A stretch of DNA of 28,728 nt, taken from the NCBI GenBank assembly GCA_016200955.1, contig JACQDU010000062.1:1-28728 (forward strand), given 5' to 3'. Source of the DNA: a bacterium. GTDB lineage: Bacteria; Planctomycetota; J058; JACQDU01. Under the pieces are notes generated by a model, which had not been told where the DNA came from, did no database searches, and worked only from the letters and a program-made list of their open reading frames with translations. A program made the translations under genes and the position numbers. Position 1 is the first letter of the stretch. Each line of letters begins with the position of its first letter. Positions 3,531-25,705 of this stretch are shown one piece after another.

Positions 3531-4487
3531 TCACGGCCCCGCGAGGACGATCGTGCCCGTCTTCTCGTCGAGGCCGTCTTGCAGCTTCTCCTCCGAGGTG
3601 ATCACGACGCGCCGCCCGCCTCGAGCGAGGAAGGCGAGCGCCGACTCGATCTTGGGGCCCATGCTCCCGGGAGGGAACTCGCCCTGAGCATGGTAGGACG
3701 CGAGCTGCGCTCGCGTGACGCGGGAGAGATCGGCGGCGCGCGCGGTCCCGTAACCGATCTGCACCCTCTCGACCGCGGTGAGGACGGCGAGCGTGTCGAT
3801 CCCGAGGTCTCCCGCGAGGAGAGCGCTCGTCCGGTCCTTGTCGACGACGGCCTCGACTCCCCGGAGGAGGCCGTCCTTCCCGCGCGTCACCGGGATCCCG
3901 CCGCCGCCGGCGCAGACGACGATCGCTCCGGCTTCGTGCAAGCCGCGGATCGTCTCTCGCTCGACGACTTCCGTGGGAGAAGGCGAGGCGACGACGCGCC
4001 GCCAGCCCCTCGGAGGGAACTCCTTCACGACCCAGCCGGGCCTGCGCGCCTGCGTGATCGAGGAGTAGAACGCGCCGATCGGTTTCGTCGGGTCTTCGAA
4101 GGCCTCGTCGTCGGGATCGACGAGGACGTGCGTCACGACCGCGACGACGTCGCGCGGGACTCCTCGCCGCGCGAGCTCGTCTCGCAGGAGGAGCGCGATC
4201 ATGGAGCCGATGAAGCCCTGCGTGTCGGCGACGGCCGCGTCGAGCGGGATCGGGCCCATCTCGGTGCGCGCGAGCTCGCCTCGCAGCATGACGTCTCCCA
4301 CCTGCGGGCCGTTCCCGTGCGTGATCACGATCTTCGGCTTCGCGGCGGGCTCGCGCGCGAGCGCCGCGGCGAGGATCCCCATGCTCTCGCGCGTGCGGGC
4401 GAGCTGCTCTTGCACCGTGCCCTTCTCGCCCGGGCGGACGATCGCGTTTCCGCCGAGCGCGATGAGCAGCGAAGGAGGGAAGGTCAT
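3531..4487 (-). CDS. arcC: Carbamate kinase
   Basis: IALGGNA, VITHGNGPQVG, PTKPIG, GWRRVVASPSP, GGGGIPV, GVEAVVDKD, GSMGPKI. Start placed at ATG 4487, 4 nt after the hpt stop. Confidence 0.95.
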   Translation of the reverse strand: MTFPPSLLIALGGNAIVRPGEKGTVQEQLARTRESMGILAAALAREPAAKPKIVITHGNGPQVGDVMLRGELARTEMGPIPLDAAVADTQGFIGSMIALLLRDELARRGVPRDVVAVVTHVLVDPDDEAFEDPTKPIGAFYSSITQARRPGWVVKEFPPRGWRRVVASPSPTEVVERETIRGLHEAGAIVVCAGGGGIPVTRGKDGLLRGVEAVVDKDRTSALLAGDLGIDTLAVLTAVERVQIGYGTARAADLSRVTRAQLASYHAQGEFPPGSMGPKIESALAFLARGGRRVVITSEEKLQDGLDEKTGTIVLAGP

Positions 4488-21706: not shown

Positions 21707-22522
21707 CTACCCCGCGAGCGCCAGAAATATCTGCTTCCGCGAGTCCGTGAGCAGACCCTCGGCCTCGAGGCGCGCCGCGAACTTCGTCACGTCCTTCCCC
21801 GCTTCCGCGAGGCAGACCGAGATGAGGAGAGGCGCGAGGTCCTTCGAGGAGCGCAGCTCGAGGAACTTCCCGCCCGTCTCGCCGGCCATCCACTCGAAGA
21901 CCCGCCGCGTCTCGAGGTACGAGTCGACGAGGACCGTGTAGACCCGGACGCCCTTCTTCGCGAGGGCCTCGACCTCGTCCCGGTAATCGACTCCGCGCGA
22001 GCAGCCGTCGAGGGCGTCCATGCCCGCTCCGTGGGGAGGCTTGTCGCCGACGAGCACGATCGCCTTCCGGGCCGAGGCCCGCCAGGCAAGGGAATTCGCG
22101 GCGCGCAGGGCGCACTCGACCGCCTCGGCGCCGCCGCCTCCCTTGCCGGGAGCGACCTGCCGCGCGTTCAGGAAGGCGCGCACGTCGTCGCCGCGCTCGG
22201 TGAGCGGCTGGACGAGCGTGAGGTAGTGGGCGTTCTCTCCCTGGTCGCCGTGGTCCTTGTAGCAGACGACGCCGAGCCGCGAGCGCGGGACCTCGCGGGC
22301 GATCTCGTCCGCGATCTCGGTCGTGCGGAGGCGGACCTCGTTCAGGTGGACGCTCATGCTGCCCGTCGTGTCGAGGAGGAAGGCCGCGTCGAGCCCGATC
22401 CCGCCCCTCGAGCCTAGGACGACGCCGTCCCAGCGCCGGTCGCCGAACGCGCGCGCTCGCGCGAGGAAGGACTCTCTTGCGGTCTTCGAGAGCCTGCCCT
22501 GAGCTGAGTCGAACGGGGTCAT
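21707..22522 (-). CDS. Stand-alone VWA domain protein (271 aa)
   Basis: MIDAS FLLDTTGSM, VVCYKDH, GGGGAEAV, LAWRASARKAIVLVGDKPPHG, GGKF; GGAGGAG RBS before ATG 22522. The track ORF 21707..23344 merges it with the upstream gene. Confidence 0.88.
   Translation of the reverse strand: MTPFDSAQGRLSKTARESFLARARAFGDRRWDGVVLGSRGGIGLDAAFLLDTTGSMSVHLNEVRLRTTEIADEIAREVPRSRLGVVCYKDHGDQGENAHYLTLVQPLTERGDDVRAFLNARQVAPGKGGGGAEAVECALRAANSLAWRASARKAIVLVGDKPPHGAGMDALDGCSRGVDYRDEVEALAKKGVRVYTVLVDSYLETRRVFEWMAGETGGKFLELRSSKDLAPLLISVCLAEAGKDVTKFAARLEAEGLLTDSRKQIFLALAG
22498..22516. repeat. Short relative of the 11361-11450 repeat family inside the VWA 5' coding end
   Basis: CCTGAGCTGAGTCGAACGG shares CCTGAGC and AGTCGAA with CCTGAGCGTA...GTAGTCGAAGG at 11363-11402. 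Confidence 0.55.
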
Positions 22523-22653
22523 GCTTCTCCTCCGTGGTCCCGCTCTCGTCCTGTGAGAAAAACGACGGATGACGGGAGAGCGGAACGTGAGAACACTACG
22601 CTTACGCACGGGAGCGGGGCGGCGGATCGCCCGAACTCCTCGCTTTCCCGCGG

Positions 22654-23344
22654 CTAGAAGGGATCGACGGTCTCGCTCGCCGCCTTCACGGTCGCCCGGA
22701 GGGCCTCGCGGACCTTCTCGTAAGCGAGGCCGATCTCCTTGAACTTGTCGGGGTCGACGCCCGCGCACGCGGCGTCGGCGTGGTAGATCTTCGCGAGCTC
22801 CCGGTAGACGCGTTTCGCGTCCTCGGACTTCCCCGAGGGCGAGGTCGATGAGAGAGCGGACCTCCTCGAGCTTCGCGGGAGGGAAGCGGCGGGCGTGGGC
22901 GTCGCTCTCCTCGAGAGGGCGCTTCTGGGCCCCGGTGGGAGTCTTCGAGACCGAAGGCGCCTCGGCGGCGGGCGCCGGCACCCCCTCGGGAGCCGCCTCG
23001 ACCACGGCGTCTCTCTGGCGGAAGATGTCCGCGAGGGCCGCGACCGCGAGCGCGATGAGCGGGAGGCCGACTCCGATCGCCGCGACCCTCCCCGTGGGAG
23101 AGAGGGTCTTGAGCGGGGCGTCGAGGGCGACGATCCACGAGAGACCGGCCGCGACCGAGGCCACGACGCTCGCGAAGCGCAGGTCTCCCTGCTCAGGATC
23201 GTCGGGTCCCAGGAGCAGGGCCGAAAGGGTCGGCCAGCTCCCTTGCCCCCACTTCCTCGCCACGCGCGCGAGGGCGCCCGTGGCCGCCGCCGTCGCGAGC
23301 GCCGCCGCGGCGAACCGGAGAGCCGGAGACGAGAAGGCGTCCAT
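22654..23344 (-). pseudogene. Membrane-anchored J-domain-like protein (HAD instead of HPD), split by a 1-nt frameshift
   Basis: Three N-terminal hydrophobic segments in one frame; AKRVYRELAKIYHAD...DKFKEIGLAYEKV in another. Removing one base from the C4 run at 22831-22834 gives a continuous 229-aa protein. Confidence 0.7.
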
Positions 23345-23434
23345 GGAGAATGCTCCCGCTCGTCTATCGGCGCCTTTCGTTCGCGGCTTGAGGACCGGCG
23401 CGCGCGCGGCGCCGCCGCTCCGCGCTCCCGTGTA

Positions 23435-23571
23435 GAATTCAGCATTCGCCGCAGGCGAATGCGGTGGTGCAACAATTCACTTGGGCCGGAGGCCCTAGTG
23501 AATTCAGCATTCGCCGAAATGCGAATGCGGTGGTGCGACGATTCACCTGGGCCCTGGGCCCTGGTGAATTC
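23435..23571. repeat. Two tandem 65/66-nt units, each with two hairpins, bounded by three GAATTC
   Basis: GAATTC at 23435, 23500 and 23566; hairpins 23442-23462, 23474-23504, 23507-23528 and 23540-23570. Confidence 0.9.
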
Positions 23572-23608
23572 GGCGGCTGGCGAAGAAGCACGGATCCACG
23601 AAAGGCCC

Positions 23609-25705
23609 ATGGCCGAGAGCCTCGAGGTCGTCACCTTCGAGCGTCGCGGGCGCCTGAGCATGGGCGCGCTCAAGGGCGGCGGCGAGAAGAACGCGCGGGT
23701 CGTGGACGACCTGGGGGAGACGCTCAAGGTCTCTCTCGACAAGGTCCTCCACCGCTTCCGGGCGAGGATCGAGGACGGCGATGCCCGCGAGGTCAAGGAG
23801 CGCCTGAAGGCGCTCGAGGGAGAGCTGCTCGCGGGCGCTCCGGGTGCGGTCGACCTCGACCTCCTCTGGGATTCGCTCGAGGACGAGCGGGTCTACTCAC
23901 TCGCGCAGCTCGCGGAGCTCTACTTCGGCGAGGCGACCGACCGGGGAGTCGCCGCGCTCGTGCGGGCTCTCGGCGAGGGCGGCGACGGCGACGAGCCGCC
24001 CTATCACTTCCGGACCCGGCCGGGTGGCCTCGCGCGGACGGACCGCGAGACCTTCGAGAAGATCAAGGCTCGCCTCGACGGCGAGCGCCGCCGCCGCGAG
24101 CGCGAGGCGGCCTTCCGCGTCTGGTTCGAGGAGAGCGCGCGCGCAGCGAGGAAGAACGACGGGGCGCGCCCATTCGAGAAGCCCCCCGAGGAGCAGGCCG
24201 AGCACCTCCACGTGCTCGCGGACTACGCCCTCGCGGGAGACCGCTCGCAGCAAGCCGCGCGGGCGAGGAGGCTCGCGGCCGACCTCGGGCTCTCCGACCC
24301 CGACGAGCTCCTCGTGCTCCTCGAGAAGGGAGGATGCCTCGCTCGCGACGCGAACGAGCTCCCCCACCGCGCGGGCGTGCCGATCGTCTTCTCGCATCGA
24401 GTGAGAGCGGAGGCCGAGTCGATCGCCCAGGCGCCCTTCGACCCCTCGCGCGCGCTCGAGGAGGAGAAACGCGTCGACTTCCGGGGGAAGCCGACGACGG
24501 CGATCGACGACGCGACGACCGAGGACGTGGACGACGGGTTCTCTCTCTGGGAGGAAGGGGGAGAGCTCGTCCTCGCGGTCCACATAGCCGACGTGGCCAG
24601 GACGGTCCCGCAAGGATCCGACCTCGACGAGGACGCGAAGCGCCGGGCGACGACGATCTACTTCCCCGGCCAGACGATCCCCATGCTCCCGCCCGTTCTC
24701 CAGAGAGCGCGCCTCTCCCTCGACGCGGGCGTCGACCGGCCGGTCGTCTCGTTCGTGACGCGCATCCGCGCCGACGGCTCGCTCGCGCCGGGGAAGTTCG
24801 CGAGAGGGATCGCCCGCGTCGACCGCCGGCTCACCTACGACGAGACGCTCGCTCCTCCCGAGGAGTGGCGCGAGCCTCTCCGCCGCCTCGAGCCGGTGGC
24901 CGCGAGGCTCCGCGCCGCCCGCGCCTCGGCGGGAGCGCTCCTCCTCGAGCTCCCCGACCTCAAGATCACGATCGACTCCTCGGGCGAGCCGCACCTCGCG
25001 CTCGTCTCCTCCGACACTCCCGGCCACAGGATCGTGAGCGAGCTCATGGTGCTCTACAACCACGAGCTCGGGGGGGCGCTGCGCGACGGCCGTCTCGCGG
25101 CGATCTTCAGGACCCAGAGGGACGCCGTCGCGAAGCCCGCCGTCGCGCCCGACGATCCGCTCTACGCCGTCCGCGCGCGGCGCGGCCTGCCGCCCACGAC
25201 GCTCGAGGTCGACGCCGGCCCTCACAGGACGCTCGGAGTCGACGCTTACGTCCAGGGGAGCTCGCCGATCCGCCGCTACGGCGACCTCGTCGCCCAGCGA
25301 CAGCTCGCTTCTCTCCTGGCCGGCACGGCGCCGTCTTACTCGAAGGAAGACGTGCGCGCTCTCTCGATCGAGCTCGAGCGCGCCGAGAGGAACGCTCGAC
25401 GGCTCGAGGCGGAGCGCGACCTCTACTGGATCTGCCGCTGGCTCGATCATCGACGGAAGGAGGTCCTTCCGGGCGTCGTCTCGCGCTCTCCCGAGGGCGG
25501 GCGGGGGCTCGTGTATCTCCCGGGGATCCACATGGAGCTTCCGCTCGGAGAGCCGGAGCCTCCCGTGGACCTGCCGGAGGGATCCCCGGTCCACGTGGTC
25601 GTCCGGCGCTGCTCGGCCAGGCGGCGGACCGTCACCTTCGCGTGTGTCGGAGGAGAGGGAGCGGCCTCGCCGTCGTCGGTCTCGACGGATTCTCCTGTGC
25701 CGTGA
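23609..25705 (+). CDS. RNase II/RNase R family (RNB domain) 3'-5' exoribonuclease
   Basis: Catalytic AIDDATTEDVDDG, VHIADV, RATTIYFP, IPMLP, SELMVLYN, IFRTQ, H.TLG...Y, SSPIRRYGDLVAQRQL, S1-like C-terminus. Start ATG 23609 (track start 22895 is too far upstream). Confidence 0.93.
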   Translation: MAESLEVVTFERRGRLSMGALKGGGEKNARVVDDLGETLKVSLDKVLHRFRARIEDGDAREVKERLKALEGELLAGAPGAVDLDLLWDSLEDERVYSLAQLAELYFGEATDRGVAALVRALGEGGDGDEPPYHFRTRPGGLARTDRETFEKIKARLDGERRRREREAAFRVWFEESARAARKNDGARPFEKPPEEQAEHLHVLADYALAGDRSQQAARARRLAADLGLSDPDELLVLLEKGGCLARDANELPHRAGVPIVFSHRVRAEAESIAQAPFDPSRALEEEKRVDFRGKPTTAIDDATTEDVDDGFSLWEEGGELVLAVHIADVARTVPQGSDLDEDAKRRATTIYFPGQTIPMLPPVLQRARLSLDAGVDRPVVSFVTRIRADGSLAPGKFARGIARVDRRLTYDETLAPPEEWREPLRRLEPVAARLRAARASAGALLLELPDLKITIDSSGEPHLALVSSDTPGHRIVSELMVLYNHELGGALRDGRLAAIFRTQRDAVAKPAVAPDDPLYAVRARRGLPPTTLEVDAGPHRTLGVDAYVQGSSPIRRYGDLVAQRQLASLLAGTAPSYSKEDVRALSIELERAERNARRLEAERDLYWICRWLDHRRKEVLPGVVSRSPEGGRGLVYLPGIHMELPLGEPEPPVDLPEGSPVHVVVRRCSARRRTVTFACVGGEGAASPSSVSTDSPVP

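Follow-up and report, generated by a model that had tools for sequence, protein, structure and literature searches.

A tandem pair of hairpin-bearing units standing directly before an exoribonuclease gene raises the question of whether the pair constitutes a dedicated regulatory leader of that gene or a sequence that came to lie there for other reasons. The pair occupies positions 23435-23571 of the window, by which we mean the whole 28,728-nt stretch of DNA under analysis, and falls within the 264-bp divergent intergenic region that separates a VWA-like ORF from the RNase gene. The original prediction took it for a cis-regulatory RNA, so far undescribed and specific to the RNase gene, and named, as a fallback suggested by C-GNA-G triloops, an element of single-stranded DNA or REP type. 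Here we analyze the pair in the context of its own genome, a groundwater metagenome-assembled genome (MAG) of 4.99 Mb in 784 contigs (68% complete, 70% GC), of related genomes and of orthologous RNase loci. The results make it highly probable that the two units belong to a non-autonomous, lineage-specific family of small dispersed repeats of the class that comprises REP/BIME, REPIN, PATE and MITE elements. Repeats of this class are short and structured; they depend for their multiplication within a genome on an enzyme that is encoded elsewhere, and they accumulate in intergenic DNA.

Each of the two head-to-tail units, 65/66 nt in length, is made up of a hairpin A, a linker GGTGGTGC(A/G)AC and a 14-position hairpin B (Table 1), and the repetition is apparent as direct repeats of 54 nt at 85% identity and of 17 nt without mismatch, with a spacing of 65/66. 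The stem of hairpin A has the core ATTCGC/GCGAAT in both units. In hairpin B, a T/T mismatch is retained five pairs below the loop (23482/23496 in unit 1, 23548/23562 in unit 2), the pair T23481-A23497 of unit 1 corresponds to C23547-G23563 in unit 2, and the A-T pair at 23474/23504 becomes G-T at 23540/23570. Units, hairpins, linker, loops, base-pair changes and mismatch all lie where the original prediction had located them. Its description of the setting was likewise accurate, both in the AT-richer character of the block (58-61% GC against 70-78% in the surroundings) and in the presence downstream of an RNase II/R gene (RNB domain, E 4e-57), whose ATG at 23609 follows the end of the element at 23571 after a gap of 37 nt. 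Folded as RNA, the 180-nt region reaches -83.7 kcal/mol (z = -4.2, with 0/200 shuffles as good) and forms four stable hairpins; folded as DNA, each unit yields z-scores of -5.2 to -6.0 on either strand. No T runs occur 3' of the hairpins, which rules them out as terminators, and a scan of 23250-23700 for a sigma-70 promoter and an intrinsic terminator found none.

Table 1. Features of the tandem pair and its locus (positions in the window), with the lengths of the spacers upstream of the RNase gene and its orthologues.
Feature	Position or length	Strand	Evidence or remark
RNB-domain exoribonuclease gene (RNase II/R family, 698 aa)	23609..25705	+	Pfam RNB E 4.3e-57
Divergent neighbour, weak VWA match	21707..23344	-	ORF list; Pfam VWA E 1e-4, below cut-off
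TAGAAT, candidate -10 box of RNase gene	23433..23438	+	Sequence; repeat starts inside or just after
Repeat unit 1, short form ~67 nt + shared GAATTC junction	23435..23505	+	Best-scoring family member: nhmmer E 1.7e-20, covariance model 97.7 bits
Hairpin A, unit 1: 9-bp stem, GCA (GNA) triloop, C-G closing	23442..23462 (arms 23442-23450/23454-23462)	+	
Linker GGTGGTGCAAC, unit 1, contains GTGG tetranucleotide	23463..23473	+	Columns nearly invariant in 23-copy alignment A1
Hairpin B, unit 1: 14 positions, GGA (GNA) triloop, one conserved pyrimidine-pyrimidine mismatch	23474..23504 (arms 23474-23487/23491-23504)	+	
Repeat unit 2, more diverged, GAATTC junction common with unit 1	23500..23571	+	nhmmer E 3.4e-16; covariance model 81.2 bits
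Hairpin A, unit 2: 8-bp stem, 6-nt loop CGAAAT (one base inserted vs family consensus)	23507..23528 (arms 23507-23514/23521-23528)	+	
Linker, unit 2	23529-23539	+	
Hairpin B, unit 2, loop CTG	23540..23570 (arms 23540-23553/23557-23570)	+	
Spacer upstream of RNase gene, window	264 bp		
Spacer upstream of RNase gene, L035	77 bp		
Spacer upstream of RNase gene, L036	227 bp		
Spacer upstream of RNase gene, L037	17 bp		
Spacer upstream of RNase gene, contig encoding P0004	25 bp		

Sequences of the same kind are scattered throughout the genome. BLAST of the block against its own genome returned 51 matches on ~40 contigs and both strands, with full-length copies 83-94% identical, and an iterated nhmmer profile returned 47 matches at E<1e-5 and 71 at E<0.01. 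A covariance model (R1), built from 23 aligned copies (alignment A1) with the two-hairpin structure, identified 70 matches at E<=0.01; taken together, the nhmmer and covariance model matches are spread over ~60 contigs and both strands. The pattern of hairpin A, with up to two mismatches allowed, occurs at 57 sites in the genome and at 0 in a reversed-genome control. Extending each copy by 400-500 nt revealed no longer shared element, the shared sequence never exceeding ~140 nt. The search for further genomic copies had been proposed with the original prediction, and the ~50-70 dispersed copies that it found speak against an RNA specific to the RNase gene.

Metagenomic assemblies carry a corresponding signal. 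Contigs from four groundwater metagenome runs of one study stack on positions 23451-23491 to a summed depth of ~130, against 3.5-4.4 in the flanks, and the loose ends of the stacked contigs are mutually unlike on both sides, as would be expected where a multi-copy element interrupts assembly. Among the contigs of these four DNA runs there was no joint that skips the element, none that spans the whole stretch and no insertion polymorphism; it is from the distribution of its copies that we infer the mobility of the repeat.

The dispersed copies also alter the meaning of the base-pair changes between the two units, which had been put forward as covariation. Identity to unit 1 reaches 94% for a copy on contig C351 and 93% for one on C41, and copies on C220, C27 and C28 follow at 91-92%, whereas between the two units it is 86%, placing unit 2 only thirteenth among the matches of unit 1. 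Because unit 1 is nearer to these distant copies than to unit 2, the apparent covariation is ordinary variation among members. Judged by these identities, the two units are neighbouring members of the family, and not a local duplication that has undergone compensatory drift.

The genomic position of the copies was analyzed using genes called by a GC3-based ORF picker, which yields 86% coding and ~14% non-coding DNA. Against this ~14%, 33/47 strong matches are fully intergenic, and the rest are mostly gene-end overlaps or partial matches. The 33 intergenic copies fill 31 spacers, 19 co-directional, 12 divergent and 0 convergent. Convergent spacers make up 16-18% by length or count, so that 0/31 corresponds to P ~0.002-0.005, a value that derives from a single, post-hoc test on crude gene calls. 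GC content and the frequency of AATT and GAATTC are equal in convergent, divergent and co-directional spacers, so that simple target availability does not account for the bias. Orientation follows no comparable rule. Within co-directional spacers 9 copies run with the direction of the genes and 10 against it, and this randomness argues against a strand-specific leader RNA; with respect to contig GC skew, 23/36 elements lie on the G-rich strand (P 0.13, with short contigs and small skews). Comparison of 20 neighbouring genes with Pfam identified 0 RNases, and the functions encountered are unrelated, including thymidylate kinase (tmk), PPK2, two metallophosphoesterases, NuoA, OEP, an ABC1 kinase, a HisKA kinase, a rhodanese/MBL protein, an acyltransferase, an E1 dehydrogenase, a thioredoxin-like protein and a TPR protein.

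The absence from convergent spacers lends itself to an explanation in which the host maintains the motif in promoter and 5' spacers, either as a site for a nucleoid or regulatory protein, with two palindromes of ATTCRC/GYGAAT half-sites, or as an element that structures transcripts. REP/BIME elements bind host proteins, the linker and stems of the present family are strongly conserved, and a host role would best account for a distribution confined to divergent (12) and co-directional (19) spacers. We nonetheless regard this explanation as unlikely. Copies are 85-94% identical over 67-112 nt, including the non-palindromic linker and loop-proximal bases, which points to copying and not to convergent operators. 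Within co-directional spacers they lie near the upstream stop codon as often as near the downstream start codon, their neighbours have no common function, the family is absent from the sole other genome of the same taxonomic family and from 39 further relatives, and the spacer bias is itself the outcome of one post-hoc test on home-made gene calls. A variant of this idea, to which we likewise assign a small probability, is that the element has been recruited by the host and is tolerated or selected only in promoter and 5'-end spacers, where its two ATTCRC/GYGAAT hairpins would be recognised by one protein (a domesticated HUH enzyme or a DNA/RNA-binding regulator). If this were true, the pair in the RNase leader and other copies like it would tune the expression of many genes at once.

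Orthologues of the RNase, at 66-72% identity, are encoded in other metagenomes, and the nearest named homologue belongs to a Planctomycetota MAG, which serves as a lineage hint only. Synteny is kept on four orthologue-encoding contigs, with an S1/P1 nuclease-PDZ gene, a VWA gene and a weak DnaJ-like gene. The orthologous leaders were a further check put forward with the original prediction, and the element is missing at all four of these syntenic loci, where there is either no room for it or no match (Table 1); the family profile (nhmmer) gave no match at E<=10 on L035, L036 and L037. We also observed a difference in gene structure on the other side of the spacer. The minus-strand neighbour at 21707-23344 is a single 545-aa ORF in the window, with VWA matches that are sub-threshold only, in the place where the orthologous loci have a weak DnaJ-like gene and, separately, a weak VWA gene, and the discrepancy can stem from either a fusion or a mis-called start.

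The upstream regions of the orthologues carry a counterpart of the TAGAAT that precedes the pair. The sequence GGTTAGAAT lies 27 nt (L035) and 9 nt (L036) before the RNase start codons, and in the window GTGTAGAAT is followed directly by the repeat. Removing both units in silico, with one GAATTC kept, leaves TAGAAT 38 nt before the ATG. The GGTTAGAAT/GTGTAGAAT motif is found in this way 9-38 nt before the starts of RNB-domain RNases in three metagenomic lineages (L035:3960-3975, L036:3975-3990, window 23430-23438). It is likely a -10 box, as had been proposed for TAGAAT at 23433-23438 and as its occurrence just before the start codon in two orthologous upstream regions bears out, and we infer a promoter function for TAGAAT from this sequence comparison. 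Two further features of these upstream regions were observed. A sequence ATAGACTTACG is common to L036 and L037, and a 39-nt near-pure G+C stretch (CGGCGCGCGCGCGGCGCCGCCGCTCCGCGCTCCCGTG, 23394-23432) separates CTTGAGG from TAGAAT in the window, where the L035 orthologue has just one base between the two.

The TAGAAT box is probably ancestral, and the repeat pair would have landed just 3' of it, between box and start codon. Since the pair lies directly 3' of a probably ancestral box, it is likely co-transcribed in the RNase 5' leader. A leader RNA dedicated to the cis-regulation of the RNase II/R gene, providing tandem binding or cleavage sites for autoregulation, would be consistent both with this location between a plausible -10 box, kept in orthologues, and the start codon, which probably puts the block in the mRNA, and with its folding into four stable hairpins. 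Yet ~50-70 copies adjoin unrelated genes on both strands and point at random with or against the gene downstream, the element is missing before four RNase orthologues in syntenic position, and units 1 and 2 are not each other's closest relatives. Together these results render a dedicated leader very improbable and, by the criteria set out with the original prediction, refute its central claim, while its fallback of a single-stranded DNA or REP-type element fits the evidence for a dispersed repeat. Under the preferred reading as a dispersed repeat, the pair is probably part of the RNase 5' leader by an accident of insertion, and its effect on RNase expression, if any, would be a by-product of that insertion and not dedicated control.

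The alignment of family members provides a definition of the repeat. The consensus of the 23 short copies in A1 measures ~67 nt and consists of RATTCAGC, hairpin A, the linker GGTGGTGCAAC, hairpin B and TC, with 8 nt before hairpin A at the 5' end and 1-2 nt after hairpin B at the 3' end. Hairpin A has an ATTCGCC-GNA-GGCGAAT core. Hairpin B follows the scheme ATTCACTT-GGGCC-GNA-GGCCC-TAGTGAAT, in which an outer stem ATTCAC/GTGAAT is joined to an inner stem GGGCC/GGCCC or GCGCC/GGCGC with one pyrimidine-pyrimidine mismatch, and its outer stem is related to that of hairpin A (ATTCGC/GCGAAT). A long subfamily of nine copies, ~112 nt in length, has the ends and hairpin A of the short form and a hairpin B that contains an extra TTGCGGC/GCCGCAA stem and a variable apex of ~30 nt. 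The family is modular, occurring as A alone, B alone (C538), A+B and A+long B.

Solo copies of hairpin A are present on C495 at 2741-2775 and 4141-4176, in opposite orientations, in the map-rpsM and rpsK-rpsD spacers; we observe that these copies sit inside a ribosomal protein operon, a highly transcribed unit. Near the end of contig C311 (5154-5533), one full unit and three solo hairpin A copies in mixed orientation occur within ~400 bp, a cluster that is possibly a hotspot or a degraded array. On C641 (2470-2560, 3851-3897 and 4467-4498), a hairpin A-like GCATTCGCC-TAC-GGCGATTGC recurs in a long predicted coding region, with the hairpin A-like sequences at 2482-2546 forming an apparent ~27-nt tandem repeat; these sequences may be a palindrome-like repeat of the coding sequence itself, or copies of the element within a mis-called gene.

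Structure is maintained across the family. In A1, 86.9% of pair cells are standard-paired, compared with 26-40% when 3' partners are slid by 1-3 columns, and 93.7% of hairpin A helix cells are paired. One pair is G-C in 16 copies and C-G in 6, and another is U-A in 9, U-G in 5 and C-G in 3, counts that refer to paralogues with common ancestry. The long subfamily is likewise marked by the C-G variant, so the G-C/C-G switch may go back to a very small number of events. At the mismatch position, 22/23 copies have two pyrimidines, and the loop conforms to GNA in 19/23 copies for hairpin A and 13/23 for hairpin B. G-U and A-C cells are present in similar numbers (23 and 16), and given this near-equality the wobble pairs give no indication of the folding strand. 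Unusual stability in DNA is known for d(GNA) triloops with a C:G closing pair (PMC3201870; PMC13037366), and their presence here fits a single-stranded DNA intermediate, short of proof.

Several of these features bear on how the repeat may have spread. Given that it is a dispersed repeat, we put at somewhat less than an even chance that the unit is mobilised as folded single-stranded DNA by a transposase of HUH/Y1 type, in the manner of RAYT/REP or of IS200/IS605-derived PATEs. This mode of transfer is suggested by a pair of imperfect, mutually related hairpins that lie close to the two ends on one strand, by C-GNA-G triloops in both hairpins, which are exceptionally stable in DNA, by the conservation of the in-stem mismatch of hairpin B and of GTGG in the linker, and by ends with no evident target-site duplication and no true inverted repeats. 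Searches of the genome found no match to Y1_Tnp (PF01797) or OrfB_IS605 (PF01385), and a TnpB-like zinc ribbon (PF07282) reached 22 bits only, below the cut-off; the missing enzyme weighs only lightly against mobilisation, because the genome is 68% complete and repeats and IS elements often go unassembled.

The main alternative to HUH/Y1 mobilisation is that the unit is a MITE of the classical type, dependent on a DDE transposase with AATT or GAATTC as its target; GAATTC would then be the duplicated target. Both the tandem pair in the window and an inverted, tail-to-tail pair on C167, the only inverted pair seen, share exactly one GAATTC at the junction, as expected of nested insertion into a palindromic duplicated target, and the termini that remain after AATT (CAGC... 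and ...AGTG) form a weak CA/TG inverted pair. We consider this alternative doubtful. In the individual copies of A1, changes in the 3' AATT go along with changes in the 5' arm of hairpin B and do not follow the 5' flank, so that this AATT belongs to the hairpin and not to a duplicated target. Conservation at the 5' end fades gradually, with no sharp boundary, true terminal inverted repeats amount to <=2 nt once GAATTC is set aside, and no copy extends into a longer element bearing a transposase.

Outside this genome the family was not found by either BLAST or R1 in 40 relatives, of which 1 belongs to the same taxonomic family and 13 to the same order, the remainder coming from the same class or phylum; R1 yielded one isolated 30-bit match in genome G004 that is probably due to chance. 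The comparison with Rfam proposed with the original prediction returned no match, the best overlapping scores being 18.8-21 bits against gathering scores of 63-64, and mir-86 and PreQ1-III, which appear at permissive E-values, were set aside as sub-threshold chance matches. An exact 22-base core pattern gave four isolated single matches in 185,579 species genomes and JGI metagenome contigs, collections that may not include the records of the present genome itself. Two of these (L032 and L034) were rejected as family copies, as the rest of the unit is absent and they look like chance, and the other two are single matches in Mycolicibacterium and Noviherbaspirillum. Among the genomes searched, the family is restricted to this one.

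The pair represents an undescribed repeat family, with no Rfam match and not found in 40 relatives or in two public pattern scans. What appeared to be a covarying structured RNA upstream of an RNase gene is a genome-wide repeat, for which masking is appropriate and a riboswitch-like leader model is not, and R1 and A1 together define the family for masking in this lineage.

Comparison with known systems places the family in a wider setting. Integron attC sites, CRISPR repeats, parS/dif sites and known operator boxes were considered and dropped, their defining context or sequence being absent. The autoregulatory leaders of the RNase genes rne, pnp and rnc resemble the pair in presenting stable stem-loops between promoter and start codon, but such a leader occurs once and is conserved together with the gene it precedes, whereas the present element is multi-copy, unrelated to the gene and missing at orthologous loci. 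Pneumococcal BOX, Neisseria Correia and enterobacterial ERIC elements share its modular build and its location in or near transcribed intergenic DNA, and insertions of this type can alter the leaders or promoters of neighbouring genes; the present repeat differs from them in showing no sequence similarity and no Rfam match. The present copies also lack the 26-bp inverted ends and the TA duplication that characterize Correia elements. Nor does the combination of terminal inverted repeats and target-site duplication that defines MITEs describe the family, for the flanks have no copy-specific direct repeats and the sole inverted termini are GAATTCA/TGAATTC, the 3' copy of which is the hairpin B arm.

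REP/BIME and REPIN sequences with their RAYTs, as known from Pseudomonas, Stenotrophomonas and Enterobacteria (PMC3116915, PMC3686654), are likewise short imperfect palindromes in tens to hundreds of copies, nearly all intergenic, on both strands and lineage-specific. They resemble the present family in occurring singly, as inverted pairs and as tandem clusters, the latter known for REPINs (PMC3116915), and in a GTGG-containing segment before the palindrome and a conserved in-stem mismatch. In the strict sense, a REP has a conserved 5' GT(A/G)G directly followed by the palindrome (PMC3686654), whereas in the present family the linker contains a near-invariant GGTGGTG that ends short of hairpin B by 6 nt, with nothing comparable before hairpin A on either strand. 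The unit further differs in combining two different same-strand hairpins and a conserved linker, where a REPIN is an inverted doublet of one REP; inverted doublets do not predominate, and the structure closest to one is the lengthened hairpin B of the long subfamily. The 68%-complete assembly yielded no RAYT, and no copy lies between convergent genes. With GTGG not adjacent to the palindrome, no predominance of inverted doublets and no RAYT found, a strict REP/REPIN assignment cannot be made.

PATEs are miniature derivatives of IS200/IS605 that are moved as single-stranded DNA by TnpA. The present family differs from them in that no TnpA/TnpB gene and no full-length parent element were found in this incomplete genome. 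It resembles them in being short and non-coding, with a sub-terminal imperfect hairpin near each end on one strand, the arrangement by which PATEs are recognised, and in combining DNA-stable loops with a lack of the usual terminal inverted repeats and of evident target duplication. The family extends the catalogue of REP/PATE-like elements by a repeat with two hairpins and GNA triloops, found in a groundwater lineage that has not been cultured.
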